Source of the DNA: a virus | IMG/VR virus record: IMGVR_UViG_3300048838_001809 | DNA length: 64,000 nt | Strand: one strand, 5' to 3' | Shown here: in pieces, positions 47,068 to 61,519 of the stretch | How positions within the stretch are numbered: position 1 is the first letter of the stretch | How the letters are laid out: each line of letters opens with the position of its first letter | Notes under the pieces: model-generated | The model's input: only the letters and a program-made list of their open reading frames with translations | Database searches by the model: none | What the model was told of the DNA's origin: nothing | Position numbers and translations under genes: made by a program

Positions 47068-49161
47068 ATGTATAGACACCTACAGGACGACTGGTATCAG
47101 TGCGACACATGCGGGTCGCGCCGCCGCTCTCCGGTCGATCTATCGAGTATTCGTTGTCGCTGCGGCAGTACCCCATCTCTCCCCGAGACCACGACGGACA
47201 AAAAAAAGCCGTGCGGCGAGCCGTGCGATAATCGCGTCGTCAAATTGTTTGAGACGGCATGGGGTTTCGCTAAATCAATCGCCTATTGGACCGCACGCGG
47301 CTTTAAGACCACGACGCAAGAGCAGTACGAGGAGCGGCGGGCGATCTGTCGCTCCGGCCCGCATGGAAAGTGCCCCAGCGGACAGCTGGTGGTCACGTTG
47401 GGGATGGTCGAGCGGTGCGGCAAGTGCAAGTGCGTCGTCGCGCTCAAAGCAGGACTCGTGCAGAACGACGGCAAGAGCGACTGCCCGCTAGGACACTGGC
47501 CAGCGATTGAACTGGCGGCAGAAAGCGCAGGCGACGAAGACCAGTCGGAGCCGCTGGAGGATTGCCGGATCAAGCTGGTAACGCGCGAGCCAGCGCCATT
47601 TGAGTCAGCGCCATCGGAGACAGCCGTAGACCTCACCGAGAGAACGGTGTGCCTAACGATCCTTAAGGGGCTGGGCGATTCGATGTGCTTTCGCTCGGCG
47701 CTCATGCACCTGGCTCGCTTTCGTCCGCGATGGAAGGTTGACGTGTTGACACACGTTTATCATCGATCGCTCTTCCAAGGACTCTGTGAACGCGTCTTAG
47801 AGCAACCGCCAGACCATTCTCAATACGACGTATTGCACCAGCCTGGATTTATGAGGCCCAGGCAATGTTACGTGAAGGTGCCATGCAATACGACCCAATT
47901 GTTCCTGCTAAGCATTCTCGGCGTAACTCCGTCTGCCGAGTTGAGCACCTACGGGCAGTTGTCGCCCAGTGACCAAGAGGTCGAGTATGCCGATCGATGG
48001 CTGGCTCCATATGGAAATGTGGTGCTGATTCATCAGCGGGGCCGCAGCTTTCCGACCGCCAAGAATCCGCCCGGATCTACATGGGGACAGTTGACGCAGA
48101 AAGTCCGCGACATGGGCTACACGCCCGTCGTCGTCAATTTCGACGGAAATGCCGAGTTGCATGGCGCTGTCAGCCTAAGTGCCGGCAATTACCATCAGCC
48201 ACAACATGGAACGAGCCTGGCAGCCCTTATTAGTCGCTGCACGCTGTTTGTCGGGGTCGATTCTGGGCCGTTGCACGTCGCCGGCGCCACGGCGACGCCG
48301 ACCATTGGAGTGTGGCTCAATCATCATCCTGCACATAGCTATAACATTGCCGATAACGTCACCCACCTGGTTCCGAGAAACCACGTTCAATTCCTACCGC
48401 GCAAGAACCGAACTTTCGGCGGCCGGGTCTTCGATGACCACTATCGATACCGGATATACGACGACCTGGGCGGCGACCTGGCATCGACGGCCGAGAGGCT
48501 GCTGTCCGCCGGCGGGCCATCGCCCGATGGCGAGCTGGTGCGCGTCGACGGATCGTGGCTGCGCCGTCGGTGGAAAGCCGAAGACTTGTATATCTGGCGG
48601 GAGATTTTCGAGCAGGACGACTACCGCGTCCGCCAGCTTGGCTGGCGCCCGCAGTGCGTCATCGACATCGGGGCGCATTGCGGCTTCTTCACGCAGCTGG
48701 CTTCGCAGCTCTGGCCGTCCGCGGCGCTGATCGCCGTCGAGCCTGCCGAAGAGAACGTCGCCGTAGCGCATCGCAATTGCCCGCGAGCCAGCATCATCCA
48801 GGCTGCCTGCACCTATGACCCTGAGCCAATCCACTTGGAGGTCTCGCTAGGGACAAAGGAACACACCGGCGGCTGTCGCGTCAGTCAGCTTGGCAGAGTT
48901 GTTCCGCGTGTGACCATGGATGAGATTCTGTCGAAAACCGATTGCCATGACATCCTATTGAAGTTGGATTGTGAAGGCGGCGAGTTCTCGATCATCGAGC
49001 ACTGTCAGCAGATGCACCGCATCCGCACGATCGTCGGCGAATGGCACGATCGCAACCGGTTCATCAAGCTGGTTCGCCGGAAGCTCCCAGACTGGAAATT
49101 AACGATCTACCGCGACCATGAAATCGGACTGTTTCGCTTGGACCGACCATGCTCACCGTGA
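47068..49161 (+). CDS. Three-domain fusion: an N-terminal Zn-ribbon, a GT9 heptosyltransferase-like domain, and an FkbM-family SAM methyltransferase.
   Basis: 'YQCDTCGS...CRCGS' ribbon. 'LFVGVDSGPLHVAGATATPTIGVW' matches the GT9 signature. The C-terminal 'VIDIGAHCGFF...IAVEPAEENVAVAHRNC...LLKLDCEGGEFSII' matches FkbM (Methyltransf_21). Confidence 0.6.
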   Translation: MYRHLQDDWYQCDTCGSRRRSPVDLSSIRCRCGSTPSLPETTTDKKKPCGEPCDNRVVKLFETAWGFAKSIAYWTARGFKTTTQEQYEERRAICRSGPHGKCPSGQLVVTLGMVERCGKCKCVVALKAGLVQNDGKSDCPLGHWPAIELAAESAGDEDQSEPLEDCRIKLVTREPAPFESAPSETAVDLTERTVCLTILKGLGDSMCFRSALMHLARFRPRWKVDVLTHVYHRSLFQGLCERVLEQPPDHSQYDVLHQPGFMRPRQCYVKVPCNTTQLFLLSILGVTPSAELSTYGQLSPSDQEVEYADRWLAPYGNVVLIHQRGRSFPTAKNPPGSTWGQLTQKVRDMGYTPVVVNFDGNAELHGAVSLSAGNYHQPQHGTSLAALISRCTLFVGVDSGPLHVAGATATPTIGVWLNHHPAHSYNIADNVTHLVPRNHVQFLPRKNRTFGGRVFDDHYRYRIYDDLGGDLASTAERLLSAGGPSPDGELVRVDGSWLRRRWKAEDLYIWREIFEQDDYRVRQLGWRPQCVIDIGAHCGFFTQLASQLWPSAALIAVEPAEENVAVAHRNCPRASIIQAACTYDPEPIHLEVSLGTKEHTGGCRVSQLGRVVPRVTMDEILSKTDCHDILLKLDCEGGEFSIIEHCQQMHRIRTIVGEWHDRNRFIKLVRRKLPDWKLTIYRDHEIGLFRLDRPCSP

Positions 49162-49541
49162 TGACCAATGGCTGTTTTGACCTATTGCACGCCGGCCACG
49201 TCGACTTCCTGCGCCGCTGCCGACTGCTGGGCGATCACCTTGTCGTGGCGATCAACAGCGACCAATCGGTGCAAAGACTCAAAGGGTCGGGGCGGCCGAT
49301 CTACAGTCAGCACGAACGTATTTGCATCGTTTCCGCTTTGCGTTATGTAAGCGAAGTTCATGTGTTTGACACCGAAGAGGAGTTGTCGGAGTTGGTGAAG
49401 CGGATTCAACCTGACGTATTGGTCAAGGGGGGTGACTACGCCGGTCGCGACGTAACCGGGGCAGGGCATGCTCGGCGACTGGTCCTGTTGCCGCTCGTGC
49501 CAGGGCATTCAACCAGTCAGACGATCGCGAGGCTGCGATGA
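49149..49541 (+). CDS. D-glycero-beta-D-manno-heptose 1-phosphate adenylyltransferase-like, corresponding to HldE/RfaE domain II.
   Basis: 'GCFDLLHAGHVDFL...VVAINSDQSVQRLKGSGRPI...VLVKGGDY' is a cytidylyltransferase-fold signature. Confidence 0.7.
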   Translation: MLTVMTNGCFDLLHAGHVDFLRRCRLLGDHLVVAINSDQSVQRLKGSGRPIYSQHERICIVSALRYVSEVHVFDTEEELSELVKRIQPDVLVKGGDYAGRDVTGAGHARRLVLLPLVPGHSTSQTIARLR

Positions 49542-50074
49542 GGCGTGCGTTTTTTGTTTGCGGACCTGAATCGAGCGGCAATCGCCTCATGGTTTCCATG
49601 CTGGTCGATGCCGGCTGTTGGGGCCGGGGGAAAATCGATCAACCCATCGACGGGTCGCTGCCAGATTACCCGATCGTCAAACCTGAGCCGCAGCCGGATC
49701 GCCTGGCGTTTTATCGCTCTTTTCCGCATGGGGGACATTGGCCGAATTTCATGCAGATCGTCAGTAACTTGCGGGCCTGGGGTTATCGGGACACCACTGT
49801 CCTGGTCATGGTCCGCGATCAATACGCCATTGAGCGCAGTCAGGTTCGCGCTGGCCATGTCAGCGACCTGAATCACGCGCGACAAAACACTACACGGGCA
49901 TACAAAGAGATTTTCTTTGGCGTGACTCGCCTCCGGCTGCCGTTTGTCATCGTGTCCTACGCGCGGCTGGGAGTGCCGGAATACCGCCAATGGATCACCG
50001 AGACACTGCGACTTCCTAAAGCACCAACGATTGAGTGGACGAATGAAGACACCAAGTATTACGGCCAAGTGTGA
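49538..50074 (+). CDS. P-loop protein, sulfotransferase-like.
   Basis: 'FFVCGPESSGNRLM' P-loop at the N-terminus. ATGA overlap. Confidence 0.35.
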   Translation: MRRAFFVCGPESSGNRLMVSMLVDAGCWGRGKIDQPIDGSLPDYPIVKPEPQPDRLAFYRSFPHGGHWPNFMQIVSNLRAWGYRDTTVLVMVRDQYAIERSQVRAGHVSDLNHARQNTTRAYKEIFFGVTRLRLPFVIVSYARLGVPEYRQWITETLRLPKAPTIEWTNEDTKYYGQV

Positions 50075-50984
50075 TGTGGACGCCATCTTGGACTCGATTC
50101 GCGGGGTCCAGATTCAGGTGTGCGGCGACACGCTCGTCGATCTGTATCTGCATCTGGCGAATCCGCGTGCATCCAAGCGCAATGCGCAGCATGTGTCCTG
50201 CGATCTGATTCGCAAGGCAACGATCCCCGGCGGGGCTGCCAACGTCGCCTGCTACGCCGCCGCGCTGGGGGCTCGCGTGGAGTTTCACTCGATCTTCTTC
50301 GCCGCTGCCCATGAGCCGGTCGACTACCTGGAGAGCATCGAGAATCTTTCGCTGCGATTGATCTACACTAAAGACTGGCGCAATCCGGTCAAAACGCGAT
50401 CGGTCATTGGTTCCGACGTGCGGATGCAAGGCAGCTACGAACCGGACGGTCTGGTTCCCGCCTTGTTGTCGGAACAGCTCGTCGATCAAGTCTTAGGCAT
50501 GGATGTCAAGACGATCGCTCTGGCCGATTATGGGCGAGGGGCCGTGAATTACCGGCAGGCTCGGCGACTCTGCGAGAGCGGCAATCAGGTGCTGGTTGAT
50601 CCGCACAAGCGCACCGAATGGTCGCGGTACGACGGGGCGCATTGCGTGAAGGGAAGTCATCTGTTTTTCGCAGAGGACTACGGGCAATCCGCCTGCTCGC
50701 CAATTCGCATCATCACCCACGCGGAACAAGGATCGCAGCTCTGGAGGACAGGCCATGCGTCGCCGGTATGGATTCCAGCGATTTCAACACGGGTCGCCGA
50801 TACGACCGGCGCCGGTGACTGCTATCTGGCGGCGCTGGCGTGTTGCACTGCGGCCGGCGTCCCAACTTTTGAAGCATGTCAGTTCGCGAGTGTGGTGGCG
50901 TCAATGAGCGTCGAGCGGATTGGCACGGAGCCGATCTATCCGCATGAAATCAGGGATTGGGCGAGCACGGTGGCATGTTCGTAA
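50043..50984 (+). CDS. PfkB-family sugar kinase, corresponding to the HldE/RfaE domain I heptose-7-phosphate kinase.
   Basis: 'DTTGAGDCYLAAL' PfkB signature. The N-terminus 'VQIQVCGDTLVDLYL' is consistent. Confidence 0.65.
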   Translation: MKTPSITAKCDVDAILDSIRGVQIQVCGDTLVDLYLHLANPRASKRNAQHVSCDLIRKATIPGGAANVACYAAALGARVEFHSIFFAAAHEPVDYLESIENLSLRLIYTKDWRNPVKTRSVIGSDVRMQGSYEPDGLVPALLSEQLVDQVLGMDVKTIALADYGRGAVNYRQARRLCESGNQVLVDPHKRTEWSRYDGAHCVKGSHLFFAEDYGQSACSPIRIITHAEQGSQLWRTGHASPVWIPAISTRVADTTGAGDCYLAALACCTAAGVPTFEACQFASVVASMSVERIGTEPIYPHEIRDWASTVACS

Positions 50985-51787
50985 GCGGCCAGGGCCAGCC
51001 GCTATCGCTGGCCAATCTGTATCGCAATGGCCAGGCATTTTTGTTGCTGTCTGGACCTAGCGCAAAACAGCTCGATCTTTCGCTGCTAACGCGGCGAGGC
51101 TGCTACGTCATGGGCGTGAACAATTCGCCCGCCCTGGTTCGCTGCAATTCGATGATCTACGTCGATCGCGCCTGGAAGATTCACGATGCGATCTGGCTCG
51201 ATCCGGCAGCGATGAAGTTCGTGCCGCAAACGCAGCTCGATTGTGGTATCCGCCGCCAGACGCCAAACGGGCCGGCTTATCCGGCCGCTCCGATCGTCGC
51301 TGGCACCCTGCCAGGGGTCGTTGGCTACGCGCGCAATGATCACTTTCGGCCGGCAGTGTGGATCGAGGAGGCGTCGGTCAACTGGGGGCACAACGACGTG
51401 CGAGGGGGCACTTACCCCTATTGTAAGGACGTACTGTTCGCGGCCCTCAAGGTGTTGTACGTGCTGGGCTTTCGCACGATCTACCTGTTGGGCTGCGACT
51501 TTTCCATGCGCGCTGACCGGCCCTACGCATTTGACGTGGCGCTGGGCCAGCACCACGCCGAGTGGTACGAGCACGCCAATAACAGCATCTACAAAAAGAT
51601 GGCCCAAATGCTGGCCGACCTGAAACCTCACTTCGATTCCGCCGGGCTGAAAATTTTCAATTGCAACCAAAAATCTGGGTTGACGGTTTTTGAATCATGC
51701 TCTTACAACGCCGCCATCGGTGCGGCTTCCGGGGGTATTCAGCAAGGGTTGCTGGACGCCAGGGGCTGGTACGAACTAAACGACTAG
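50975..51787 (+). CDS. DUF115 / Maf-like (motility-associated-factor glycosyltransferase family) protein.
   Basis: 'AFLLLSGPSAKQLDLSLL...CYVMGVNNSPALVRCNSMIYVDRAW' resembles the DUF115 'GPSL...vi.vN.a....PD..v..D' pattern. Confidence 0.4.
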   Translation: MFVSGQGQPLSLANLYRNGQAFLLLSGPSAKQLDLSLLTRRGCYVMGVNNSPALVRCNSMIYVDRAWKIHDAIWLDPAAMKFVPQTQLDCGIRRQTPNGPAYPAAPIVAGTLPGVVGYARNDHFRPAVWIEEASVNWGHNDVRGGTYPYCKDVLFAALKVLYVLGFRTIYLLGCDFSMRADRPYAFDVALGQHHAEWYEHANNSIYKKMAQMLADLKPHFDSAGLKIFNCNQKSGLTVFESCSYNAAIGAASGGIQQGLLDARGWYELND

Positions 51788-51812: not shown

Positions 51813-52550
51813 ATGCAGGACTGGACTCTCATTCTGGCAGTGGACGCCGAACACGCGCGCGAACTTCAATTGTCCTGGCCGACGTGGCGAGCGCACCGGC
51901 CGGAGATTATGGAGCATCCGCTGCTGGTCATGCTTGATACGTCAAGTTGTGGACCCAGCACGCTCGACATCATCGGCATCGATCATCCGCATGTGACGTT
52001 TGCGAGCTGGCCGCCGCGCAGGTTTGGTTCGTTTCCAAACCAGCGAGCCAAGATGCTGTGGTCATTCGTGGCGGCGGCCGACTACATCCAGACTCCGTAC
52101 TATCTCAAGCTCGACACGGATGTCATCGCCCGCGAGCCGTCGCAGTGGTACTCCGACTGGTGGTTCAAGCGGAACTATTCTTTCATCGCGCCGCGCTGGG
52201 GATACACCAAGCCTGCCAACGCCATCGAGCAGCTTGAAGCCTGGGCTAACCGCATCAAATTGGGTGAAGAGTTGGTTGATCCGGGGTTTGCTCGCCATGG
52301 CGATCGCGTCATGCACAAGCGAATCACGTCCTGGATGTTCTTCGGGCAGACCAACTGGACTCGTAGCATGGCTGCGATCGCCGCCAAGCACCCGCCGCCC
52401 ATCTATTCGCACGACACGTTTCTCTGGTTCTGTGCCGTCCGCACTGGAGCGCACTTCATGCCGATCAGCGCTCGCGGAAACGGCTGGGAGCACGTTCCGC
52501 CATTCAAGCTGGAGCGAGCCGCACAGGAGGCGTTGACATGCCGGAGCTAA
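51813..52550 (+). CDS. Glycosyltransferase-like (GT-A) protein.
   Basis: 'YYLKLDTDV' DxD-type motif. Confidence 0.4.
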   Translation: MQDWTLILAVDAEHARELQLSWPTWRAHRPEIMEHPLLVMLDTSSCGPSTLDIIGIDHPHVTFASWPPRRFGSFPNQRAKMLWSFVAAADYIQTPYYLKLDTDVIAREPSQWYSDWWFKRNYSFIAPRWGYTKPANAIEQLEAWANRIKLGEELVDPGFARHGDRVMHKRITSWMFFGQTNWTRSMAAIAAKHPPPIYSHDTFLWFCAVRTGAHFMPISARGNGWEHVPPFKLERAAQEALTCRS

Positions 52551-53173
52551 ACGCCGACTGCCCGCGGTTCGAAGTGCTGGTGCGAAGTGAGTTCCTTTAC
52601 AACTTCCAGAAGGGCATGGGCGAGTACGCGCCCGGCATCTGTCACTCGATCACGTCCATTCCAGGCCGAGCGCTGGGCTTCAACGTCCTATTGAACAACG
52701 GAGCCCATATCGGCCGACTGCCGATTCACGCGCTGGCGCACCGCCGCGACCGTGTGGCCAGCGTGCCGCATGATGACCCTTGGCGCCGGCAGCTCTGGGA
52801 TTGCTTCTCGGCGAATGTCGCTGTGGTCGAGTACGCCTATCTGTCTGGCATGCGCTGCCGCGTCAGCCTGGCCGATCGCAAAGTGATCGGCGGCGTCTAC
52901 ATGTTTACGGTTGACTACTGGGGTTCGCCCGCCGCTGAATCCGCTGGGAATGCTGGCTGGAAGTGTCATCACCTGATCGCGCTGGATGACGGCACGTTTG
53001 CCGCGCAACCGAACAACCGCATCTGCCTGTTCGAGCCCTCTTGCGTTACGCCATTCGAGCAGCCGCCGGACTACAAGACGATGGAGCGTGTCTGGCGCGT
53101 CGAGGACGGCGCTCGCTGGCGCACGTCCGATGACAGCGCCATGTTCTACGGCGTTCAGGAGCTGAATCAATGA
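52538..53173 (+). CDS. Hypothetical protein within the glycan island.
   Basis: Overlapping start-stop coupling on both sides. Confidence 0.45.
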   Translation: MPELNADCPRFEVLVRSEFLYNFQKGMGEYAPGICHSITSIPGRALGFNVLLNNGAHIGRLPIHALAHRRDRVASVPHDDPWRRQLWDCFSANVAVVEYAYLSGMRCRVSLADRKVIGGVYMFTVDYWGSPAAESAGNAGWKCHHLIALDDGTFAAQPNNRICLFEPSCVTPFEQPPDYKTMERVWRVEDGARWRTSDDSAMFYGVQELNQ

Positions 53174-53934
53174 GTGACTGCATGATCGTCCTCACGAACT
53201 GGCGCAGGCCGCAAAACATCGCGCAGATTTTGTACGCGATCAAGCGGCAGTCAGTGGCACCGATCGCAGTCGCTTGCATCGACAACGCCGAGAGTGGATA
53301 CGAGCTGCCGGCCTGTGACGCTTGCCGGTTCGATGCTTACTTTCGCGTCGAGCGGCCGAACTACGGGCCGCCCTGCCGGTTTATCCCCGCGCTGGCCAGT
53401 TATGCGGAGTATTGCCTGTTTCTGGATGACGACCTGTCACCCGGCTGGCGGATGCTCGAAACTTTCCAGGACACCGCCAAAAAGCTGCGAGGGCAATTCT
53501 CCACGCTCTGCCAGATCGGCCGCATCTTTGAGTATCACGGTCATCGTGTCCCGCCCTGGCATTACAAGGCCCGTAACGTGCCGCTCCAGCGAGAGCCCAT
53601 TCGGGTCGACATGGGCTGCCGCGCGCACTTTTTCCGCACGCGCGACTTGCATCACGTCATTCAGTTCAACTGGGACTTGATCGACGCATACGGCGAGCAG
53701 GCTCGCATCGAAGTCGCTCGCCACGACGACCTGTCTCTTTGCCTGGGGTTGCAGCGCGCCCTCAATCTGCCGACGTACATCTTGCCTGAAAACCTGGATC
53801 GGTCGACCTGGATCAACGGCATGGAGCTTCCCGACAACGACGCTTTGTCGAGCATGCCTTTATTCAAGCAAGTGCGCAGCGAATTCATTCACTGGGCCGA
53901 TCAAATCGGCTGGCAATCACTCGTTTCGAGGTAG
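53170..53934 (+). CDS. GT2-like glycosyltransferase.
   Basis: 'CLFLDDDL' DxD motif. ATGA overlap. Confidence 0.45.
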   Translation: MSDCMIVLTNWRRPQNIAQILYAIKRQSVAPIAVACIDNAESGYELPACDACRFDAYFRVERPNYGPPCRFIPALASYAEYCLFLDDDLSPGWRMLETFQDTAKKLRGQFSTLCQIGRIFEYHGHRVPPWHYKARNVPLQREPIRVDMGCRAHFFRTRDLHHVIQFNWDLIDAYGEQARIEVARHDDLSLCLGLQRALNLPTYILPENLDRSTWINGMELPDNDALSSMPLFKQVRSEFIHWADQIGWQSLVSR

Positions 53935-53936
53935 GC

Positions 53937-55202
53937 ATGGCCCGCTTTATCTTGCGTGTCGATGACGTAGGCTGGCTCCCGGATCACAGCCCCGACTACG
54001 GCCTGGAATACTTCGCCGCCTGGCGCAAGGCTGCCGGCCTGTCGGGCTTGCCGGTCTATTACGGGGCCATCCCAAGCTGCATTGGGGATCGCGAGTTGAA
54101 ATGGCTCCAAGAGAATCTCGCTGGCCGCGAGGAGCTATCGGTCCATGGCTGCGATCATGCGCGAGGCGCGAACGTCACTCGCCAGCAAATGGCCGATGCA
54201 ATCCATCGCTTCCGCACGGCGGCAAAATGCCGGTCGTATATCGCCCCCTTCAATAAGTACACTCCCGCCACTGTGCGAGACTGGAACTTGGCGACTGCCG
54301 CCGATCACGAAGGCTACTTCTTCGGCGGTTTCGATCACGAGCATCACCAGCATGGAAACTATCCAGTTGCCGTAGATGGGCATGTCGTTCACCTGCCGGC
54401 GTTCCGGCCGCTCTATGATCACACCGAGCCGTTGACTGAAGAAGTTCCGCTGTGGTGCGACACTCAATGCCCGCTGGTGGTAACACTGCATTGCACCTGG
54501 GGTCACGCCAGACTTGATCGCTTGGCGGCAATCACGGAACTGTTGCTGCCGCACTTGATGCCGATCGACTTAGTGCAGCCCTGGCTGGAGCGGTCGCGGC
54601 TCAATTTGAAGCGGCTGACTGCCGCGCATTACTTCGCTCAACGCTGGGTGCTGGAGCGAATCAAGATCGGTGACAGGGTGCTTGATTTCGGGGCTCGCGA
54701 CGGAGAGATGCCTTCTCAAATGGCGCTGCGCGGGTGCACTGTTTCTACAGTGGACCGCGATTCAACGAGTCCGGGAAAGCAGCATGCCGTCGCAGGCAGG
54801 CTGGGTGTCGAATTGACCGCCTATTGCTCCTCCAGCCTCGATTCGATCGGCGAGGGCTACTACGACGTTGTGACAGCCACCTGGGCGATTCAGCACAATT
54901 TGCCTGGAGAAACCGAGATACCAGCGATTGCCGCTGCACTAGCCCGTCGCATCAGGCCCGGCGGCCGATTATTGATCGTATCCAGTCATTCATCGCGCGA
55001 GAGCTTCGACCAGATCGCCAGGCCCGATCCACAGCGAGTGCTATCCTGGGTCGACCATCAGCGATTGATCGTTCAGCCAAGCGGCTGTCAGCTAGCTGGC
55101 GATCCGTATTTTTTTCAATACGAACACGCCACCGCGATTGGCGGAAAGTGCCGGCAGGAAGATGCAAATGCCGTGGCTTATGAACTCAGGAAGCCAGCAT
55201 GA
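53937..55202 (+). CDS. Fusion of a polysaccharide-deacetylase-like N-domain and a class I SAM methyltransferase C-domain.
   Basis: N-terminal 'ILRVDDVGW' is NodB-like. C-terminal 'VLDFGARDGEMPSQMALRGCTVSTVDRD' is MTase motif I, and 'RPGGRLLIV' is motif-III-like. Confidence 0.5.
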   Translation: MARFILRVDDVGWLPDHSPDYGLEYFAAWRKAAGLSGLPVYYGAIPSCIGDRELKWLQENLAGREELSVHGCDHARGANVTRQQMADAIHRFRTAAKCRSYIAPFNKYTPATVRDWNLATAADHEGYFFGGFDHEHHQHGNYPVAVDGHVVHLPAFRPLYDHTEPLTEEVPLWCDTQCPLVVTLHCTWGHARLDRLAAITELLLPHLMPIDLVQPWLERSRLNLKRLTAAHYFAQRWVLERIKIGDRVLDFGARDGEMPSQMALRGCTVSTVDRDSTSPGKQHAVAGRLGVELTAYCSSSLDSIGEGYYDVVTATWAIQHNLPGETEIPAIAAALARRIRPGGRLLIVSSHSSRESFDQIARPDPQRVLSWVDHQRLIVQPSGCQLAGDPYFFQYEHATAIGGKCRQEDANAVAYELRKPA

Positions 55203-56206
55203 AGATTGTTTCGGTAAGCCGCATTTATCCGACGCACCGCCCTGGCGGAATGGGTTTCGTCGCGCAAGATCGCGCCCATGCGCTGGCCAAGGCAGGGCAC
55301 GAAGTTCACATTCTCACGACTGGAGCACACCGCGGCGAAGCAGACGTGATGGATGCGTTCGTGCATGTCCACCACCTGGACTGCAAGCCACTGGCTTACT
55401 CCGACGAATTCGCCAGTCGCTGCCGGGAAGCGTGCGAATCAATCCGGCCCGACATCATCCACCTGGACAGTTTTGACACGGATCGCTTGTGGTGGGCTGG
55501 CCGACCGCGCGGCGTCAAGAAAGTCGCCATCACGCTGCACGGATTCTGCTGGGGCTCGGCTTTAACCAAGTGGAATCTCTACAAGCTCGGCCAGGGTCCG
55601 GCTCCGCAGTTCGATTTCGTTGGCATGGTGCATGAGCGCGAATCGCTCATGCAAGCCGACGCCGTGATAGGAATCTCTCGACACGAGCACTGGATGCTCA
55701 AGGATTTGCTCGGCATTCCGCACGCCCGGTTGGTTTACAACCCGATCGCACCTGGATTTTTCGCCAAGCCGATCGTCGATCCCCCTAAATCGCCGCGACT
55801 GCTTTGCGCGGCGATTTCTGGACATGGAGAGCGGCTGTTCGCGGTGGCCAAGAAAGCAGCCAGTAAGGCTGGCATTCCGTTGGATGTCGTCTCAAAGTCG
55901 CCGCGGCAGCTCATGCCGGGAGTCTATGACGAGCATTCTGCGTTGATTGTTCCTACGGCGTACAGCCAAGGACTGGATTTGACAGTTGCAGAAGCGGTAG
56001 CTCGCGGGCGGCCCGTCATAGCGTCTGCAACAGGCAGTTACCTAAGAGAATCTGAAGTATCCAGCTCCGTTTCTGTCGCGCCGCTGGGTGACATTGATTC
56101 GCTGGCAAGAGCGATGTCGCTGTTGACGCAATGCAATCACCGTGAGTCAGATAAGCATAGACCAGAAGTGCACGTAAGTAACTGGATGTCGGCGATCAAT
56201 GTTTAG
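55199..56206 (+). CDS. GT4-family glycosyltransferase (GT-B fold).
   Basis: 'GGMGFVAQDRAHALAKAGHEVHILT' N-terminus and 'E..GLDLTVAEAVARGRPVIAS' are both GT4-like. ATGA overlap. Confidence 0.65.
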   Translation: MKIVSVSRIYPTHRPGGMGFVAQDRAHALAKAGHEVHILTTGAHRGEADVMDAFVHVHHLDCKPLAYSDEFASRCREACESIRPDIIHLDSFDTDRLWWAGRPRGVKKVAITLHGFCWGSALTKWNLYKLGQGPAPQFDFVGMVHERESLMQADAVIGISRHEHWMLKDLLGIPHARLVYNPIAPGFFAKPIVDPPKSPRLLCAAISGHGERLFAVAKKAASKAGIPLDVVSKSPRQLMPGVYDEHSALIVPTAYSQGLDLTVAEAVARGRPVIASATGSYLRESEVSSSVSVAPLGDIDSLARAMSLLTQCNHRESDKHRPEVHVSNWMSAINV

Positions 56207-56774
56207 CGAAGCAGACATTCGTGAAGTTTCAGGATTTGCAGGGTACTTCGCTAGAGGCGATGGGACACTATGGACACGTTGGACTAAAGGGCCAATGCGA
56301 CGGAAGCGAGATAACTTAAGGCAAATCGTTGGTCACAGAAACAAAGTTAGTGGATACATCGAAACTGATATCTTGAATGACAAAGGCGAGCGATGTCACG
56401 TACTGGTCAATTGGATTATCGCAACAGCGTTCCATGGACCGAGGCCACAAGGGTTGCAGTGTCGGCATATTGATGGAAATAGAGCCAACAACATGCCGGA
56501 CAACCTTGCTTGGGGAACGCAATCAGACAACGAGCAAGACAAAAAAGACCACGGACGTTTTAATCGTGTGGTTTTGCGTGGAAGTGAGAACGGTAGTGCA
56601 AGGCTAAATGAATGCCGAGTATTGGAAATAGTTAGACGTTGCAATGATGGGGAGAGCCGCTCGTCCATTGCTGCTGAACTTCATGTGTCGCGTGGCTCCG
56701 TTGATTCGATTATGTCGGGAAGAAATTGGTCGTGGCTTACAAAAATCAGTCGCAAAAGGGTGGCTGCGGCATGA
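56199..56774 (+). CDS. HNH homing endonuclease inserted in the glycan island.
   Basis: 'VSGFAGYFARGDGTLWTRW' is NUMOD4-like, and 'RHIDGNRANNMPDNLAWGTQSDN' is HNH_3. Same architecture as the HNH at 4508-5083. AT-rich island. Confidence 0.7.
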   Translation: MFSEADIREVSGFAGYFARGDGTLWTRWTKGPMRRKRDNLRQIVGHRNKVSGYIETDILNDKGERCHVLVNWIIATAFHGPRPQGLQCRHIDGNRANNMPDNLAWGTQSDNEQDKKDHGRFNRVVLRGSENGSARLNECRVLEIVRRCNDGESRSSIAAELHVSRGSVDSIMSGRNWSWLTKISRKRVAAA

Positions 56775-57295
56775 AGCGACTGGAAATTGGACCAGGCCCC
56801 AACAAGCTCGGCCCGGACTGGATCACGCTCGATTGCGTACCTGGGCCGCATATCGTTTTCGTGGCCAACTGGGGCGAGGATCGCCTGCCGTTCAATGACG
56901 AGACGTTCGATCTGGTGTACGGCAGCCACGTCCTCGAACACGTTCCCTGGTTCCGCACGATCGATGCACTGCGCGAAGTACATCGCATCTTGAAACCCTG
57001 CGCTCCGCTGGAAATCTGGGTGCCCAACTTCGCCGTGATCGTCAGCGCCTATCTCGACGGCGAGCCTGCCGACAACTGGCGAAAGCACAATGACGATGGC
57101 GACGTGATGACATGGGTGAACGGACGACTCTTCACCTACGGCCCCGATCCGAACTGGCACCGCGCCTGCTTTGACGAGAGGCACTTGCGGCGATGCTTCG
57201 AGGCCGCCGGCTTTCGTGAAGTGCATCGCCTGACTGGCCGCGAGCGCGGTCACGCGCATGGTCCAATTAGCCTGGGAATGCGGGGTGTCAAGTGA
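56771..57295 (+). CDS. Class I SAM-dependent methyltransferase.
   Basis: 'FDLVYGSHVLEHV' (Methyltransf_11-like). ATGA overlap. Confidence 0.6.
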   Translation: MKRLEIGPGPNKLGPDWITLDCVPGPHIVFVANWGEDRLPFNDETFDLVYGSHVLEHVPWFRTIDALREVHRILKPCAPLEIWVPNFAVIVSAYLDGEPADNWRKHNDDGDVMTWVNGRLFTYGPDPNWHRACFDERHLRRCFEAAGFREVHRLTGRERGHAHGPISLGMRGVK

Positions 57296-58140
57296 GTGTC
57301 ACTTACGTTACCTATCAGCAGCTCTACAGCGACATCCTGGCCTTCGCGCCCAAGCTGCCGCGCGGCATCGACATTATCGCTGGCGTACCGCGCAGCGGCA
57401 TGATCCCGGCCGCGATGCTGGCGACGCATTTGCATTTGCCACTGACTGACATTTATTCGCTATGCGACGGGCACTTTCCAAAATCAGGAAATCGCCTATC
57501 CCCACTGCCAGTCAAGTCGCAATATCGCGTCCTGGTTGTCGATGACTCGATCTATCGCGGGTCGTCGCTCAGGGCGGTGAAGACTTGCATTAATAGCTCC
57601 ATCAATGGTTTGAGCTTTACTTTCGCGGCGGTTTACCGCGACCCTGGAATCGACGTGGCGTTGGATGTCGATCTGTACCACAAGAACATCTCGCCGCAGC
57701 GGTACTTCGAGTGGAATCTGATGCAGCATTCAGAACTATTCGATGCCATGCTCGACATCGACGGCGTGCTGTGCGTGGACTCGCCCGTCTTTGACAACGA
57801 TGGGCCGGAATATGTCGCCGCCATTGAAAACGCCGTGCCTTTGCATTTGCCACGAGTGCCAGTCGGCGCCCTGATTAGTTGCCGACTGGAGCGCTGGCGA
57901 GAGCAAACCGAATCCTGGCTTAAGCGCCATGGCGTCAAGTATGGCCGACTGATCCTGAGCAGCTACCCCACGGCGGCCGATCGCCGTCGGCAATGCAATT
58001 ACGGCCGCTACAAAGGCGAGCAGTATCGCGATTGTGGCGCGACCCTGTTCATCGAAAGCTCCTCTGACCAGGCCCCGGAAATCGCCCGCGTTTCCGGCAA
58101 GCCGGTCATCTGCCTGGGGGACAAAGGGGTTCACCAATGA
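57292..58140 (+). CDS. Fusion of a phosphoribosyltransferase-like N-domain and a HAD-like hydrolase C-domain.
   Basis: 'VLVVDDSIYRGSSL' is a type I PRTase PRPP motif. 'MLDIDGVLCVDSP' is HAD motif I. GTGA overlap. Confidence 0.5.
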   Translation: MSVTYVTYQQLYSDILAFAPKLPRGIDIIAGVPRSGMIPAAMLATHLHLPLTDIYSLCDGHFPKSGNRLSPLPVKSQYRVLVVDDSIYRGSSLRAVKTCINSSINGLSFTFAAVYRDPGIDVALDVDLYHKNISPQRYFEWNLMQHSELFDAMLDIDGVLCVDSPVFDNDGPEYVAAIENAVPLHLPRVPVGALISCRLERWREQTESWLKRHGVKYGRLILSSYPTAADRRRQCNYGRYKGEQYRDCGATLFIESSSDQAPEIARVSGKPVICLGDKGVHQ

Positions 58141-58988
58141 AAGTCGCCCTCGTCACGCTCTGCCTGAATGAAGCGGAGTTCATCGAAAAGAACTACGCAC
58201 AGCATGCCAATTGGCCTGGACTGGCCGCATGGATTTTCGTTGAGGCCGCCGACCACGCCTACGCCGCGGCGTCGCCGAGCATGGTGTCGCATCATGGCCT
58301 GTCGATTGACGCAACTACAGAAATCTTAGATAGACTGTCTACTTGCGACGAAAGAGTCACCGTCATTCATCACGGATGGATGCGACACACAGACCCAGCA
58401 CAAGGAAAGTGCGAGGGACGCAATAGATACATGGAGATTGCCGATGAAGTACGGCCCGATATGTTCATAGTAATCGATCAAGATGAGTTTTACAGCCGCG
58501 AAGATCAACTGCGCATCAACGAGCTTGTCGATCTGGACCGCGAGCATCGTTGTTTTCGTCTGCATCAGCGGCACATCTGGCGCCCGCCGAGCATTGCCCA
58601 CGAACCACTGTTTCGACATGAAGTGGTCGGCGGCTACTGGAGCGTCGAGCACGTCCGCGTGTTTCGCTGGTGTCCTGGTTTACGCTACACGAAAAATCAC
58701 AACTGGCCAGAGCTGCCGGGCTACGCGCCCACCAAGCGCATGTTTAAGTCGCCATTCTCCGGCCCTCAGTGCGTGCACTTAGGGTTTGCCCGTTCGCCCC
58801 GCGAGCGCATGGCGACTAACCGCTATTACGAGCATCGCGGCGAGGGGAAAGAGCAGCATGGCATCAACCGGCAGATGTACGTGAATTGCAGGTCAAGCTG
58901 GGAGTCGTGGAGCCCTGGCGACGACTTGCCGCACGGCGCCCGCGTGATCGAGTACCGGGGAGAGTCGATCCCGGAAGTCCACCAGTGA
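58137..58988 (+). CDS. Glycosyltransferase-like (GT-A) protein.
   Basis: 'FIVIDQDEF' DxD-like motif. ATGA overlap. Confidence 0.45.
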   Translation: MKVALVTLCLNEAEFIEKNYAQHANWPGLAAWIFVEAADHAYAAASPSMVSHHGLSIDATTEILDRLSTCDERVTVIHHGWMRHTDPAQGKCEGRNRYMEIADEVRPDMFIVIDQDEFYSREDQLRINELVDLDREHRCFRLHQRHIWRPPSIAHEPLFRHEVVGGYWSVEHVRVFRWCPGLRYTKNHNWPELPGYAPTKRMFKSPFSGPQCVHLGFARSPRERMATNRYYEHRGEGKEQHGINRQMYVNCRSSWESWSPGDDLPHGARVIEYRGESIPEVHQ

Positions 58989-59011
58989 ACGTCCAGTATA
59001 AAAGTATCTAA

Positions 59012-59821
59012 ATGAATGGAGTCATTTATTTTAATGATGGCAACACGCATCTGGTGCGGATGCTGGTTTCCATCTATTCACTCCGCAAGTTCTGGTCCGG
59101 GCCGATCGCCGTGCTGGATTCGACTTCGCGGCACAATCGCAGCACCGCCAAGACAGTAGACGCGATCTGTAGCGCGCTCGACTGCGAGAAGATTCGCATT
59201 GTCTCGGCCGGCAAACCTTATGTCACCAAGGCGATGCTCTGGCGCAGTACGCCGTTCTCTAAAACTCTATTCCTGGACTCCGACACGATCGTCGCCGACA
59301 ACCTGTCGCCGATCTTTGGGTTTGGCTCGCTGGTTGTGACACGGTTCTCAAATTGGTCGACCGAAACGCCCTTAATCGTCAAGCGACTCCGGCAATGGTC
59401 TGCGGTTGAGTGCAATGGCATGGAAGTCAAGCAATTGCTTCACAGGTCGCTCGGTGATCCGCATGTCGCCATCAATACCGGCGTCGTGGCCTGGTACCAC
59501 GGGCACCCCATCCTGCCTGAATGGGAGCGGCTGACCGCTGCCGGCGACGCGGCAGGCTGCATCCTGGCCGACGAGCTGGCCATGCAGCTTTTGGTCCGTA
59601 AGCACCATCACGTTATCGCGGCCGATCGCTGGAACCTGTCGTGTCGGTATGGGGTTGAGACGCATTGCCCGAAGGTGATTCATTTGCACGGCGGCAAGCA
59701 CATTGGCCGCTGGGCGCATCCACTGTGGAAAAAGGAATACGACGAATGCGTCCGCCGCAATATCGCTCGCGTGAAGCGATGGCAGCCGGCGGGCGATACA
59801 GCGCTAGCGAGGCTGCTGTGA
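59012..59821 (+). CDS. GT8-like nucleotide-diphospho-sugar transferase.
   Basis: 'TLFLDSDTIV' DxD motif. 'HLHGGKH' is GT8-like. Confidence 0.5.
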   Translation: MNGVIYFNDGNTHLVRMLVSIYSLRKFWSGPIAVLDSTSRHNRSTAKTVDAICSALDCEKIRIVSAGKPYVTKAMLWRSTPFSKTLFLDSDTIVADNLSPIFGFGSLVVTRFSNWSTETPLIVKRLRQWSAVECNGMEVKQLLHRSLGDPHVAINTGVVAWYHGHPILPEWERLTAAGDAAGCILADELAMQLLVRKHHHVIAADRWNLSCRYGVETHCPKVIHLHGGKHIGRWAHPLWKKEYDECVRRNIARVKRWQPAGDTALARLL

Positions 59822-60528
59822 AACTGGAAATCATCGTCCACTGCTGGCACTACAGCCGGCTGCTCACGTACCAATTGTCGAGCCTCATCCAACACGCGCC
59901 GCCATTCGTCGAAACGACCGTGACGATCTGCTATTGCCCGACCGAGGATGCGGCAACTCAACGGACGGTCAATTGGTTTTATCTGGCGGCCGAAGCGATT
60001 CCGCATCTGGCGGTCAATCCATTACCCATGCACCGGCGGCATCTTCTGCGGCGGGCAATCGGACGCAACATAGCCTGCAAGAGCACGTTCGCCGATTGGG
60101 TCTGGCTGACCGATTGCGACTACGTGTTCCACAATGGCTGCTTGGCGGCACTGCCTCAATTGCTGGTCGTCGATGGCCCGCTGGTTTATCCGCGACTTGT
60201 CCACAAGCATAAGTCGCACGCCATCGGCGATCGCTACATCGAGGCCGCGGTCGAACCAGCGATCCACGAAATCAACCCCGATGACTTCGAGCTCGTCAGT
60301 CATAGCCGTGCGATCGGCGGTCTACAGATCGTGCGCGGCAGCGTAGCTCGCACCAAAGGCTACTTGCCGCACTCGGTCTATCAGGAGCCAGCCGAGTCGT
60401 GGCAGCGCACCATCGAAGACCCTGCTTTTCGCAAGTATCTCGGCACGGATGGCGAGCCGATCGAGCTGCCGGCGCTGTACCGTATTCGCCACACTTTGAA
60501 AGGGAGAGAAGCACCATGCGAGCTATAA
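59818..60528 (+). CDS. GT2-like glycosyltransferase.
   Basis: GTGA overlap. 'WLTDCDYVF' DxD motif. Confidence 0.45.
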   Translation: MKLEIIVHCWHYSRLLTYQLSSLIQHAPPFVETTVTICYCPTEDAATQRTVNWFYLAAEAIPHLAVNPLPMHRRHLLRRAIGRNIACKSTFADWVWLTDCDYVFHNGCLAALPQLLVVDGPLVYPRLVHKHKSHAIGDRYIEAAVEPAIHEINPDDFELVSHSRAIGGLQIVRGSVARTKGYLPHSVYQEPAESWQRTIEDPAFRKYLGTDGEPIELPALYRIRHTLKGREAPCEL

Positions 60529-61277
60529 CTTGGGCAGTGGGCGTCACGACGGCGCCGCGCGAGCCGTCGTACCTGTGGGAAACGATCAGTAATATCAAGG
60601 CTGCCGGCTGGCCCGAGCTGACAATCTGCGCCGAGGCGGGGCATTTTTCTGACGAATTGCTGGAAACAGCCGTCGCGGACGAGGAGGGACTATCCGGCGA
60701 CACCGTACTCGACCCGCCCGACACGCTCGACAGCCTGCCGACGACATGCCGCGGCTACCCGCTGCACTTCAACGACGGCCCTGCCGGCCCCTGGCCGAAT
60801 CTGCTATCGACGATCGGCTACTTGATCGACATGTCGCCACGCGCCACGCACCTACTGGTGGCGCAGGACGATATTGCGATTGCCGCCAATTTGCGATCGT
60901 GGCTGGAGCGGCAAAGGCCGGTCTTGGAGGCTAAGGAAGTCGTGAACCTATTCACTTGCCGCCAAATGGCCGAGCGTCGCGGCTGGCATTTGCATCGCGG
61001 CATCAAGCAGATGAAGCTCGGCGCTCAATGCTATGTTATTCCGCGCGAGATCGGTGAACACCTGTTGCAGGCCCCGCCGGATTCCGGTGCGAGCGTCGTT
61101 ACGGCTGATTTCTGGTTCGCGAAGTTTCTGTCGGAGAATCAGTATGCCATGTGGTATCACTCGCCGAGCTTCGTGCAGCATGTCGGCGAGAAGCACTCCA
61201 GCCTGGCTAATCCTGGCGGCGTCATGGATTGTCGGCTGGCAATGGAATGGGTCAAAGACATGGAGGGCTTTCGATGA
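60516..61277 (+). CDS. Glycosyltransferase-like protein.
   Basis: AGGGAGAG RBS. 'LLVAQDDIAIA' acidic motif. Confidence 0.4.
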   Translation: MRAITWAVGVTTAPREPSYLWETISNIKAAGWPELTICAEAGHFSDELLETAVADEEGLSGDTVLDPPDTLDSLPTTCRGYPLHFNDGPAGPWPNLLSTIGYLIDMSPRATHLLVAQDDIAIAANLRSWLERQRPVLEAKEVVNLFTCRQMAERRGWHLHRGIKQMKLGAQCYVIPREIGEHLLQAPPDSGASVVTADFWFAKFLSENQYAMWYHSPSFVQHVGEKHSSLANPGGVMDCRLAMEWVKDMEGFR

Positions 61278-61519
61278 TGCTCTGGTTGCCAAGGCGGTTT
61301 CGTCAGCGCGAGCCAATGGGTTGCTATGTCGTCCGCGCCATGGTGTTTGGCAAGTGGCGAGAAATGCGACTGCTTGGCATGCGTGGCGCGATCGTGCATG
61401 GCGAATCGGTCGACAACGGCAGCAAGGTCATCTACGCACTCGCTGAGAATTTGATTCACCCCGAATGCCTTGGCCGATACCGCGAGTTCGTCGAGAAGTG
61501 GATGCGGGGGGCTCGCTAG
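61274..61519 (+). CDS. Hypothetical small protein. Last gene of the + operon.
   Basis: ATGA overlap. Confidence 0.35.
   Translation: MMLWLPRRFRQREPMGCYVVRAMVFGKWREMRLLGMRGAIVHGESVDNGSKVIYALAENLIHPECLGRYREFVEKWMRGAR

Follow-up and report, generated by a model that had tools for sequence, protein, structure and literature searches.

The IMG/VR virus record IMGVR_UViG_3300048838_001809 contains, in the stretch of 64,000 nucleotides analysed here (the window), a block of 18 genes at positions 47068–61519 that directly follows the phage tail genes and was read in a preliminary description, made from the sequence alone, as a glycan biosynthesis island. This raises the questions whether the block belongs to the phage or to its host, what the encoded enzymes would make and on which acceptor the product would be built. 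Our analysis suggests that the block is a glycan toolkit within the late operon, i.e., a functional phage-borne pathway for a heptose glycan made in the cytoplasm, a reading to which we assign a probability of roughly 0.85. Judged by the domain content, a phage-directed, methylated and heptose-containing glycan, as proposed before, appears to be the most reasonable product.

The window corresponds to approximately 59.8–123.8 kb of the 174,324-bp contig Ga0498930_0000262 and lies mid-contig. A protein identical to that of the first gene of the block (g01) from residue 60 on, in a shorter gene call by the Joint Genome Institute (JGI), was found on 10 JGI contigs, seven of which were 50–200 kb and the longest 174,365 and 174,324 bp, and contig fragments from at least seven samples were 100% identical to the window. 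The two contigs of nearly equal size suggest a complete genome of ~174 kb. Upstream of the block, the window contains genes for a portal, a prohead protease, an HK97-type capsid protein and a tape measure protein (TMP), and further left a ThyX fusion, an AAA ATPase and a PAPS-reductase-like gene. To the right, a GerE regulator within the window is followed beyond its end by ~9.6 kb of phage-type genes (a 565-aa large serine recombinase, a reverse transcriptase, ParB and a PD-(D/E)XK nuclease), and ~7.6 kb of phage-type genes (HNH endonucleases, an SNF2-type helicase and ankyrin-repeat proteins) were found to the left of the window. The GC content of the block and its GC content at third codon positions (GC3) equal the values of the tail genes in all but the HNH gene g11, and this argues for a long residence of the block in the phage. 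The block is interior phage DNA and not host flank, and the earlier claim that it is phage cargo was borne out by the phage-type genes on both sides of it on one contig and by its composition. The downstream gene previously called an integrase does not mark a prophage boundary, since phage-type genes flank the window on both sides and the block has the composition of the tail genes; a tyrosine-recombinase match was indeed found there, but it is weak and sub-threshold (Table 1), and the phage does not end at this gene.

All 18 open reading frames (ORFs; g01–g18) lie on the plus strand, with starts at or a few codons from those given in the preliminary description, and the same 18 genes were called by JGI on the identical source contig with only small start-codon differences. 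The start-stop overlaps described were confirmed at 13 of the 17 internal junctions, nine being 4-nt ATGA/GTGA overlaps and the rest 8–32 nt, and the four non-overlapping junctions have gaps of 2, 8, 23 and 25 nt, with a coding density of ~99.5%. Only 15 nt separate the stop codon of the last tail-module ORF, t305 (47052), from the ATG of g01 (47068); the tail genes upstream are packed equally tightly, and a tape measure gene was confirmed among them. In a consensus scan, promoter- and terminator-like sites were not above shuffle expectation, which is weak evidence as host promoters are not known. This packing suggests that the block is co-transcribed with the tail genes and translationally coupled to them, and that it would be expressed late.

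The gene g01 had been described as a Zn-ribbon/GT9/FkbM triple fusion, of which the GT9 and FkbM parts were supported both by Pfam and by AlphaFold2 (AF2) modelling followed by Foldseek searches. The match to GT9 (PF01075, residues ~190–480; E 6.2e-11, 42.5 bits compared to a gathering threshold (GA) of 22) covers model positions 175–228 of 247, that is the C-terminal nucleotide-sugar-binding part only, and the match to FkbM (PF05050, residues ~530–670; 7e-07, 30 bits, GA 22.7) coincides with a confidently modelled class I methyltransferase fold. In the AF2 model, the predicted local distance difference test (pLDDT) score was >90 for most of residues 190–697, and the top PDB matches were 3TOV (6.6e-12), WaaF (7.6e-11), WaaC (1.4e-08) and TibC (3.5e-08), followed by class I methyltransferases. 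The best fold matches were two-Rossmann glycosyltransferases of the GT-B type, all of them ADP-heptose heptosyltransferases; a PDB search with the single g01 sequence was uninformative. ADP-heptose as putative donor of g01 is supported only indirectly, by HldC/HldE neighbours in 16 bacterial loci and by PfkB-GT9 fusions. The Zn ribbon did not hold up to the same degree, as the N-terminal region showed Cys motifs only and low pLDDT. This Cys-rich region may represent an independent small, possibly metal-binding, protein module. Its residues 54–152 (window 47227–47523) have a 34%-identical counterpart in the bacterial locus L026 (15324–15572), in an apparently uncalled stretch, and the GT9-FkbM/HldE cluster of L026 is bracketed by two proteins of ~2,030 aa. 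Conservation between g01 and a homolog of 50% identity is seen from residue 49 on, which lies upstream of the TTG start at 47245 called by JGI, and the ATG at 47068 is therefore preferable.

For the following genes a split ADP-heptose pathway had been proposed. The g02 protein was found to belong to the cytidylyltransferase-like superfamily (Pfam CTP_transf_like, 4.4e-20, 72.7 bits, GA 21), and its best NCBIfam match was rfaE_dom_II (TIGR02199; 1.5e-40, 138.3 bits, under the equivalog cutoff of 181.5). It showed 43–57% identity to the HldC half of the HldE proteins that adjoin GT9-FkbM in Planctomycetota loci. Similarly, g04 was found to encode a member of the PfkB family (Pfam PfkB, 7.1e-17, 62.1 bits, GA 25.8) with rfaE_dom_I as best NCBIfam match (TIGR02198; 4.3e-30, 104.9 bits, under the equivalog cutoff of 345), and it weakly resembles the kinase portion of HldE from Planctomycetota. 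Both enzymes are likely specific for heptose. No GmhA/SIS or HldD epimerase match was obtained in Pfam for any of the 18 block proteins, and no GmhB model matched among the nine block proteins scanned with NCBIfam, g13 included, so that the two HldE-like parts stand and the pathway is only partial.

Between these two genes lies g03, whose proposed assignment as a P-loop sulfotransferase-like protein is supported by its modelled fold. The AF2 model had a pLDDT of 89.8, and sulfotransferases accounted for 13 of the 14 top Foldseek PDB matches. The first 11 matches were tyrosylprotein sulfotransferases (best TPST2, 2.3e-4; template modelling (TM) scores 0.55–0.60), and the CurM sulfotransferase, Teg12, StaL and Stf0 were also found. 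Of the conserved motifs, GPESSGNR is without the Lys of the canonical 5′-phosphosulfate-binding motif PKxGTT, and RDQYAIERS (RDx6S) fits the spacing of the 3′-phosphate-binding motif (RDPxxxxxS). There were only five homologs of g03 and no match in Pfam, NCBIfam or PHROG, and no similarity to the Sulfotransfer_3 proteins adjoining GT9-FkbM in bacteria was detected with phmmer.

Full-length relatives of g01 in species-representative genomes were almost all from Planctomycetota (Pirellulaceae, Gemmataceae, Planctomycetaceae and Planctomycetia; 27–35% identity), and the architecture of GT9 plus methyltransferase was common to 88 g01 homologs, of which all those with source names were from Planctomycetota. 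The host of the phage probably belongs to this phylum. In the 16 bacterial loci mentioned above, mostly from Planctomycetota, a gene for HldC or bifunctional HldE was located at most a few kb from GT9(-FkbM), and a Sulfotransfer_3 gene adjoined GT9-FkbM in L026 and L027, the two loci with Pfam calls. L026 additionally contained a second GT9 gene, a SIS/GmhA-like gene and separate homologs of g17 and of the N-terminal Cys-rich part of g01. Among the g01 homologs, GT9 was also found fused to PfkB or sulfotransferase domains. Since these chromosomal neighbours match, g01–g04 would be the phage version of a Planctomycetota sulfotransferase/GT9-FkbM/HldE module in which HldE is split.

A linkage of the GT9(-FkbM) gene to homologous tail genes was found in three divergent phage or prophage relatives (L010, L042 and L037), the last two being contigs of Planctomycetota metagenome-assembled genomes (MAGs). 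In L010, a homolog of the tail-module protein t317 (46% identity) is followed by one gene and then by the GT9 gene (43% identity). In L042 (Planctomycetaceae MAG), homologs of the putative tube-like protein encoded at 40717–41100 and of the tail protein t262 are followed by two small genes and GT9/FkbM, with portal and terminase on the other strand. In L037 (Planctomycetia MAG), a t262 homolog and two further genes precede a gene for a 907-aa GT9-FkbM-Sulfotransfer_3 fusion (9788–12511), which closes a tail-like module, probably lies at the prophage edge and is directly followed by pilin-like (N_methyl) host genes. The t262 homologs in L037 and L042 are full length (28–30% identity) and are located 1.3–2.4 kb upstream of GT9-FkbM. 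A closer relative, L108/L109, has kept the order g01-g02-g03 with a PfkB gene next (50–68% identity for g01–g03), and L009 has kept g01-g02. Beyond g01–g04, none of g05–g18 was found in any related phage locus, and a g17 homolog was present in one bacterial locus.

The divergence of GT9-FkbM roughly tracks that of the adjacent tail proteins. In a neighbour-joining tree (without support values), the window copy groups with L108/L109 and L009, and a second group comprises L011/L012, L014 and L037, which are viral or prophage copies, together with the MAG fragments L032 and L034; both phage-associated groups fall apart from the chromosomal HldE-adjacent clade. These comparisons suggest that, in a number of Planctomycetota phages and prophages, GT9-FkbM is a long-established, conserved gene at the distal tip of the tail module, and that this phage may have added sugar activation and more transferases behind it. 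In other viral contigs GT9-FkbM seems to be embedded in other sugar-gene contexts, because in the IMG/VR contig L012 a UDP-galactopyranose mutase gene (7544–8632; phrog_9677, 2.4e-131; 52–55% identity to glf of Streptococcus suis phage records) is located two ORFs upstream of it. PHROG annotation of the genes flanking GT9-FkbM in the IMG/VR loci L012 and L014 was otherwise mostly empty. Neither a DNA megablast search with positions 40000–64000 nor tblastn searches with the major capsid protein and g01 gave a match in INPHARED, in which no isolated phage with a detectable relative of the GT9 part was found. Scans of IMG/VR with the single g01 and TMP proteins gave no relatives, a metagenome-contig scan with a 4-sequence GT9 alignment gave 64 pattern matches with none confirmed, and hidden Markov models of t262, t317 and the 40717 protein detected no further relatives in the retrieved loci.

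The remaining genes g05–g18 include several candidate transferases, for which the level of support differed. The GT4 assignment was confirmed for g10, in which both the N- and the C-terminal GT4 domains scored above the gathering scores. For g15, 644 relatives were found; a profile of 50 of them matched glycogenin (1.1e-07), 13 of these 50 matched PF01501 (Glyco_transf_8; best 5.6e-07) and D89-x-D91 was invariant, so the GT8 assignment holds at the profile or transitive level, with no direct Pfam match. The same GT8 profile was negative against g06, g14 and g17 (hhalign). The assignment of g14 and g16 to GT2 was not confirmed: matches to PF00535 and its relatives were under GA (E 0.017–0.15, 12–15 bits), and the DxD-like motifs were found by eye only. 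For g05, earlier described as DUF115/Maf-like, the Pfam match to MptE-like/DUF115 (PF01973) was far from significant (E 0.23, 11.7 bits compared to a GA of 34.6) and no PDB match was obtained in a single-sequence search; the sialyltransferase-like PHROG match lends the assignment weak support. Two S-adenosylmethionine (SAM) methyltransferase domains besides FkbM (g09 and g12) were confirmed, giving three in total where at least three additional ones had been described. A NodB-like deacetylase part fused to g09 found no support, as residues 1–230 gave no match to NodB (Polysacc_deac_1) in Pfam at E≤0.01 and none in PDB, and the DD and HxxxH motifs were recognised only by eye. In g13, proposed to be a fusion of a phosphoribosyltransferase (PRTase) and a haloacid dehalogenase (HAD) domain, the former was weakly supported and the latter, a motif read by eye, was not confirmed.

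At least two genes of the block, g07 and g11, are not glycan genes. The relatives of g07 in phrog_3704 were found in 114 records of cyanophages, pelagiphages, flavophages and an Aphanizomenon phage (33–39% identity), under contradictory annotations ('PurM / phosphoribosylaminoimidazole synthetase' compared to 'ferredoxin') and in unrelated contexts, for example between ribonucleotide reductase subunits in HTVC008M and directly behind the TMP gene in Aphanizomenon phage CL131. Neither Pfam nor PDB gave a match for g07, which is probably a passenger that is not glycan-specific. The HNH homing endonuclease previously noted inside the block was confirmed as g11, which has a GC content of 0.479 and a GC3 of 0.43 compared to 0.56–0.62 and 0.64–0.77 in its neighbours; this deviation argues for a recent insertion between the intact GT4 gene g10 and the methyltransferase gene g12. 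Free-standing HNH_3 genes are present at least four times on the contig including g11, the others being at ~4508–5083 of the window and at 1–277 and 6554–7291 of L112, to the left of the window. It was ruled out that g11 splits a downstream methyltransferase gene, as motif I of g12 is intact at its N-terminus and the upstream GT4 gene is complete.

No convincing transmembrane segment was found in any of the 18 block proteins with 19-residue hydrophobicity windows (maximum 1.75, in a predicted Rossmann strand of g05), and no flippase, polymerase, ligase, GtrA/B-type glycosyltransferase or polyprenyl-phosphate transferase was found in the block. Because all 18 products are soluble and neither flippase, polymerase, ligase nor initiating transferase is encoded, the glycan would be assembled in the cytoplasm, straight onto the final acceptor.

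Table 1. Features of the 18-gene block and its neighbours (positions in the window).
Feature	Position	Strand	Basis
Tape measure protein, start of distal tail module	41973..44393	+	Pfam TMP_3 1.8e-22; PHROG tape-measure families
t262, tail protein right after TMP (position of the distal tail protein, Dit)	44393..45181	+	No family match; full-length homologs in L037, L042
t317, tail-module protein	45178..46131	+	46% identical homolog two genes upstream of GT9 gene in L010
t305, last tail-module ORF before block	46135..47052	+	No family match
g01, Cys-rich N-terminal region + predicted GT9 heptosyltransferase + FkbM methyltransferase, 697 aa	47068..49161	+	Pfam, AF2/Foldseek
g02, HldE-domain-II-like (HldC-like) sugar-1-phosphate nucleotidyltransferase	49149..49541	+	Pfam, NCBIfam
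g03, small sulfotransferase-fold protein, 178 aa	49538..50074	+	AF2/Foldseek
g04, PfkB-family sugar kinase, HldE-domain-I-like (HldA-like)	50043..50984	+	Pfam, NCBIfam
g05, candidate sialyltransferase-/DUF115-like glycosyltransferase	50975..51787	+	phrog_4603 'alpha-2,3-sialyltransferase' 3.8e-10
g06, DxD-type motif LKLDTDV read by eye	51813..52550	+	No significant family match (Pfam, NCBIfam, PHROG)
g07, phrog_3704 protein, 'PurM'/'ferredoxin'-annotated cyanophage/pelagiphage family	52538..53173	+	PHROG 9e-51, full length
g08, GT-A-like DDD motif LFLDDDL read by eye	53170..53934	+	No significant match
g09, N-terminal domain + C-terminal class I SAM methyltransferase	53937..55202	+	Pfam Methyltransf_23 3.3e-08, residues 240–374; PDB UbiG-type methyltransferases 1e-5
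g10, GT4-family (GT-B) glycosyltransferase	55199..56206	+	Glyco_trans_4_4 9.8e-18 (65.4 bits), Glyco_transf_4 2.3e-16 (60.7), Glyco_trans_1_4 1e-07 (32.7)
g11, free-standing HNH_3 + helix-turn-helix (HTH) homing-type endonuclease	56199..56774	+	Pfam HNH_3 4.1e-12
g12, small class I SAM methyltransferase, 174 aa	56771..57295	+	Pfam Methyltransf_23, Methyltransf_11 ~5e-08; N-terminal motif I LEIGPGP
g13, PRTase-like N-domain + C-terminal HAD-type DxDGV motif (by eye)	57292..58140	+	Pribosyltran 8.4e-06, just under GA; PDB purine PRTase 0.002
g14, candidate GT2-like (GT-A) protein	58137..58988	+	Sub-threshold Pfam Glyco_tranf_2_4 0.067, GT2 0.15
g15, GT8-family glycosyltransferase	59012..59821	+	Profile level, no direct Pfam match
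g16, candidate GT2-like (GT-A) protein	59818..60528	+	Sub-threshold Pfam GT2 0.017, Glyco_tranf_2_3 0.044
g17, candidate GT-A protein	60537..61277	+	Weak PHROG 'glucosyltransferase' 0.01; homolog directly downstream of HldE in L026
g18, 81-aa ORF, last of block	61274..61519	+	Called by JGI; no family match
Tyrosine-recombinase-like gene, convergent with block	62043..62873	-	Pfam Phage_integrase 2.3e-05, 24.7 bits (GA 27.1); Phage_int_SAM_1 3.4e-04

Further observations were made on the surroundings of the block. A 147-aa ORF on the minus strand (61516–61959), with an N-terminal signal-peptide-like hydrophobic segment and no family match, is convergent with the block, the two overlapping by 4 nt at the last stop codon of the block. 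The reverse transcriptase (RT) gene that follows the serine recombinase gene (565 aa) was variable among otherwise identical contigs, encoding either 371 aa with RVT_1 only or 593 aa with RVT_1 and RNase H; this locus (L005 10534–15749, L006 9008–14695) lies just right of the window and adjoins the genes for ParB and the PD-(D/E)XK nuclease. Both the prohead protease ORF (26157–27770, 537 aa) and the 548-aa capsid protein (27830–29476), in which the HK97-type domain comprises residues 273–534 only, contain long extra regions. At 3847–4566, 6194–6718, 8752–9198, 9539–10945 and 12184–12612 the window contains a cluster of nucleotide and modification genes (PAPS_reduct-like, SET-domain, dGTP_diPhyd_N, a 468-aa protein with its best ThyX stretch at residues 292–441, and MazG), which may indicate non-canonical bases in the DNA of the phage. 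The block was also considered as a defence system; this was rejected, as PADLOC gave only a generic match of the g09 methyltransferase domain to mad2 among the 10 block proteins scanned.

Taken by domain content, the enzymes could be arranged in the following pathway. The g04 kinase and the g02 adenylyltransferase would boost or replace the supply of ADP-heptose from heptose-7-phosphate of the host, with GmhA being supplied by the host and the HAD-motif part of g13 as the sole candidate for the phosphatase step. Heptose would then be moved onto the acceptor by the GT9 domain of g01 and O-methylated by the fused FkbM domain, and g03 may sulfate it. The chain would be extended by g10 (GT4), g15 (GT8), the sialyltransferase-like g05 and up to five more GT-A candidates, and g09 and g12 would add further methyl decoration.

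As acceptor we tentatively favour the virion proteins of the phage itself, and the tail proteins first among these, at somewhat less than even odds; glycosylation of the virion (tail) is slightly favoured over remodelling of the lipopolysaccharide (LPS) core or surface of the host. The embedding of the block in the late operon, the conserved linkage to tail genes and the phage-specific clades speak for it. An acceptor of protein nature is consistent with the presence of TibC, a protein heptosyltransferase, among the top structural matches of g01, and with the best matches of g03 being tyrosylprotein sulfotransferases. It is likewise consistent with the S-layer protein of anammox Planctomycetes, which carries oligo-heptose and methylated glycans (bioRxiv 10.1101/2020.12.03.409086). 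TibC and Aah, the autotransporter heptosyltransferases, have the GT9 fold, use ADP-heptose and modify proteins in the cytoplasm, and Cys clusters occur in both TibC and g01, which bind metal in TibC according to the PDB title and are N-terminal, poorly modelled and only putatively metal-binding in g01. However, identity to g01 is 13–15%, neither TibC nor Aah is fused to FkbM, and the block contains no autotransporter substrate.

Phage-encoded soluble glycosyltransferases of mycobacteriophages modify capsid and tail-tube proteins in the cytoplasm, a likeness to the block that we propose here; virion glycosylation in these phages was reportedly described by Freeman and colleagues in 2023. In contrast to the block, mycobacteriophages have few glycosyltransferase genes, no sugar-activation genes and no GT9 or heptose, and no homology was found; moreover, glycosylated C-terminal extensions are known from them, and a comparable acceptor feature was not seen in the structural proteins of this phage. 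Mycobacteriophage virion glycosylation, as cited in PMC12619734, serves as a precedent. FkbM-type methyltransferases and GT8/GT-B proteins of giant viruses were among the structural matches. Giant viruses possess self-sufficient, soluble multi-enzyme pathways, fusions of glycosyltransferases and methyltransferases and methylated virion-protein glycans, as in the chlorovirus A064R protein (two glycosyltransferase domains and a methyltransferase) and the mimivirus fibril clusters. Unlike this phage, they are eukaryotic viruses with other sugars, without ADP-heptose and without a tail operon, so the analogy is functional only.

Several points weigh against virion proteins as acceptor of a heptose glycan. 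Ser/Thr-rich tails or repeats were not seen in the structural proteins of the phage, and no acceptor was identified among them. WaaF and WaaC, which are LPS enzymes, match g01 as well as or better than TibC, and the gene content (GT9, GT8, GT4, GT2-like, sialyltransferase-like and HldE parts) also resembles a lipooligosaccharide (LOS)/LPS-core locus. Genes for lysogenic conversion classically occupy the slot between tail genes and recombinases, the late timing of expression is read from gene packing, five putative GT-A proteins had no significant family match, and the neighbour-joining tree carries no bootstrap values. Because the scores of the HldA- and HldC-like proteins are under the NCBIfam equivalog cutoffs, the sugar could also be other than heptose.

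The alternative that survives best, which we regard as a real possibility though not as the likelier case, is that the enzymes act at the cytoplasmic face of the inner membrane and rebuild the LPS core of the host (LOS-like) or glycosylate a host surface protein, thereby changing the phage receptor. To the same limited degree we would expect the outcomes that go with it, i.e., superinfection exclusion, progeny kept from adsorbing to debris, or lysogenic conversion. The resemblance to LOS/LPS-core loci and the WaaF and WaaC matches named above count in its favour, as do the chromosomal homologs beside HldE, with the adjoining sulfotransferase gene in L026 and L027 and the second GT9 and SIS/GmhA-like genes in L026. 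LPS inner-core and LOS loci (WaaC/WaaF-type GT9, HldE, GT8, GT4 and GT2) contain the same enzyme families, soluble or peripheral, and since LOS-type synthesis needs no Wzx, Wzy or WaaL, the absence of transmembrane proteins is compatible with an action on the envelope. Compared to these loci and to the Planctomycetota sulfotransferase/GT9-FkbM/HldE clusters, which share homologs of g01, g02, g04 and g17 with the block (L026, L027), identities are only 25–50%, HldE is split around the sulfotransferase-fold gene, the genes lie in a tail operon, and Kdo transferase and lipid A genes are lacking.

The position of the block between the tail genes and two recombinases, and the L037 relative at a prophage edge beside pilin-like host genes, also fit an envelope target. 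Serotype-converting phages use this slot, and the gtrABC and oac cassettes of P22/Sf-type prophages, located between tail genes and integrase, alter the surface glycan that serves as receptor by means of membrane proteins acting in the periplasm on a bactoprenol-linked sugar. The block is alike in its slot beside the tail genes, but it encodes no membrane protein and exceeds such a cassette roughly tenfold in enzymes; the conversion cassettes known contribute a single residue, compared to ~8 transferases here. Moreover, the tight coupling to late tail genes without a detectable promoter ill fits expression in a lysogen, GT9-FkbM roughly tracks the divergence of the tail proteins with phage copies grouping apart, as a core gene of the module would rather than a sporadic moron, and the presumed hosts are not known to have heptose in their LPS core.

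The large LPS gene clusters of the T4-like cyanophages S-SSM7, P-SSM2 and S-SM2, the function of which is still not known (PMC3037559), provide a further precedent for an envelope target. Like the block, they are large sets of sugar-nucleotide and glycosyltransferase genes in big phage genomes, HldC/HldE-like genes occur in many cyanophages, and the phrog_3704 gene (g07) is held in common. They differ in lying near hli/phoH hot spots and tRNAs and not in a tail operon, and in the host phylum; there is no sequence relation to the block beyond g02 and g07, and isolated phages gave no instance of the GT9-FkbM-sulfotransferase module.

It is improbable that the block is a mosaic of independent small modules or partly decaying 'stuffer' genes that accumulated where the tail operon ends and insertions are tolerated, with no single product. 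A conserved module structure was demonstrable for g01–g04 only, as g05–g18 were missing from related phage loci and one bacterial locus had the g17 homolog; g11 and g07 are unrelated passengers, and 'stuffer DNA' has been considered for the cyanophage LPS clusters (PMC3037559). On the other hand, all 18 ORFs are intact, their composition has come to match that of the phage, they show translational coupling at a coding density of 99.5%, the sequence is identical in fragments from at least seven samples, and the enrichment in transferases and methyltransferases is far above that of a random collection. Less probable still is that some of the transferases put sugars on modified bases of the phage DNA. 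The same genome does contain ThyX fusion, MazG, dGTP_diPhyd_N and PAPS_reduct-like genes, which are typical of phages with modified DNA, the block includes the PRTase-like g13 and the 'PurM-like' g07, and phage glycosyltransferases that glycosylate DNA exist (cited in PMC12619734). These nucleotide genes, however, lie 35–45 kb from the block in the early/replication region, the block sits in the late structural operon, and no DNA-binding or base-flipping domains were detected in it except for the HNH gene. We know of no precedent in DNA modification for GT9/ADP-heptose, FkbM O-methylation or a sulfotransferase. Finally, bacterial LPS DNA beside a prophage end, suggested by the Planctomycetota chromosomal homologs of g01, g02 and g04, is effectively refuted by the phage-type genes on both sides of the block and past both window ends, the twofold recovery of the contig (174,365 and 174,324 bp), the GC3 shared with the tail genes, the HNH gene being one of at least four on the contig, and the nearest bacterial homologs being only 31–35% identical.

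The earlier statement that such an island is unusually large for a phage is overstated in view of the cyanophage clusters (PMC3037559), the 136 phage records with HldC-like genes and the GT9-, Aah/TibC- and FkbM-annotated proteins present in uncultured Caudovirales; with these already known, the presence of such glycan genes in a phage is unsurprising. What appears to be new is the splitting of HldE around a sulfotransferase-fold gene behind a GT9-FkbM fusion, the conserved attachment of this architecture to the tail module in divergent Planctomycetota phages and prophages, its expansion to 18 genes in this phage, and the matching chromosomal module in Planctomycetota. A more specific scenario, which is speculative and rather unlikely as a whole, is a lineage of Planctomycetota phages in which GT9-FkbM, alone or together with a sulfotransferase, belongs to the core of the tail module and heptosylates, O-methylates and perhaps sulfates the tail or virion proteins of the phage itself, the single enzyme having grown in this phage to a self-sufficient pathway of ~16 enzymes with its own ADP-heptose activation.

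Phage and host are both uncultured, and whichever the acceptor, the comparison defines a conserved sulfotransferase/GT9-FkbM/HldE module in Planctomycetota and links phage contigs to this poorly studied host phylum. If the acceptor is the host envelope, the block would amount to a phage reshaping the surface glycan of a planctomycete to an unusual extent. If it is the virion, the glycan coats of tailed phages would extend past actinobacteriophages to methylated, possibly sulfated heptose and to a new host phylum, and GT9-FkbM linked to the tail module would be a handy genomic marker for such phages. Should GT9-FkbM indeed act on tail or virion proteins of the phage itself, the system would be the first in a bacteriophage to heptosylate proteins, with a virion glycan comparable to that made by the machinery of giant viruses.

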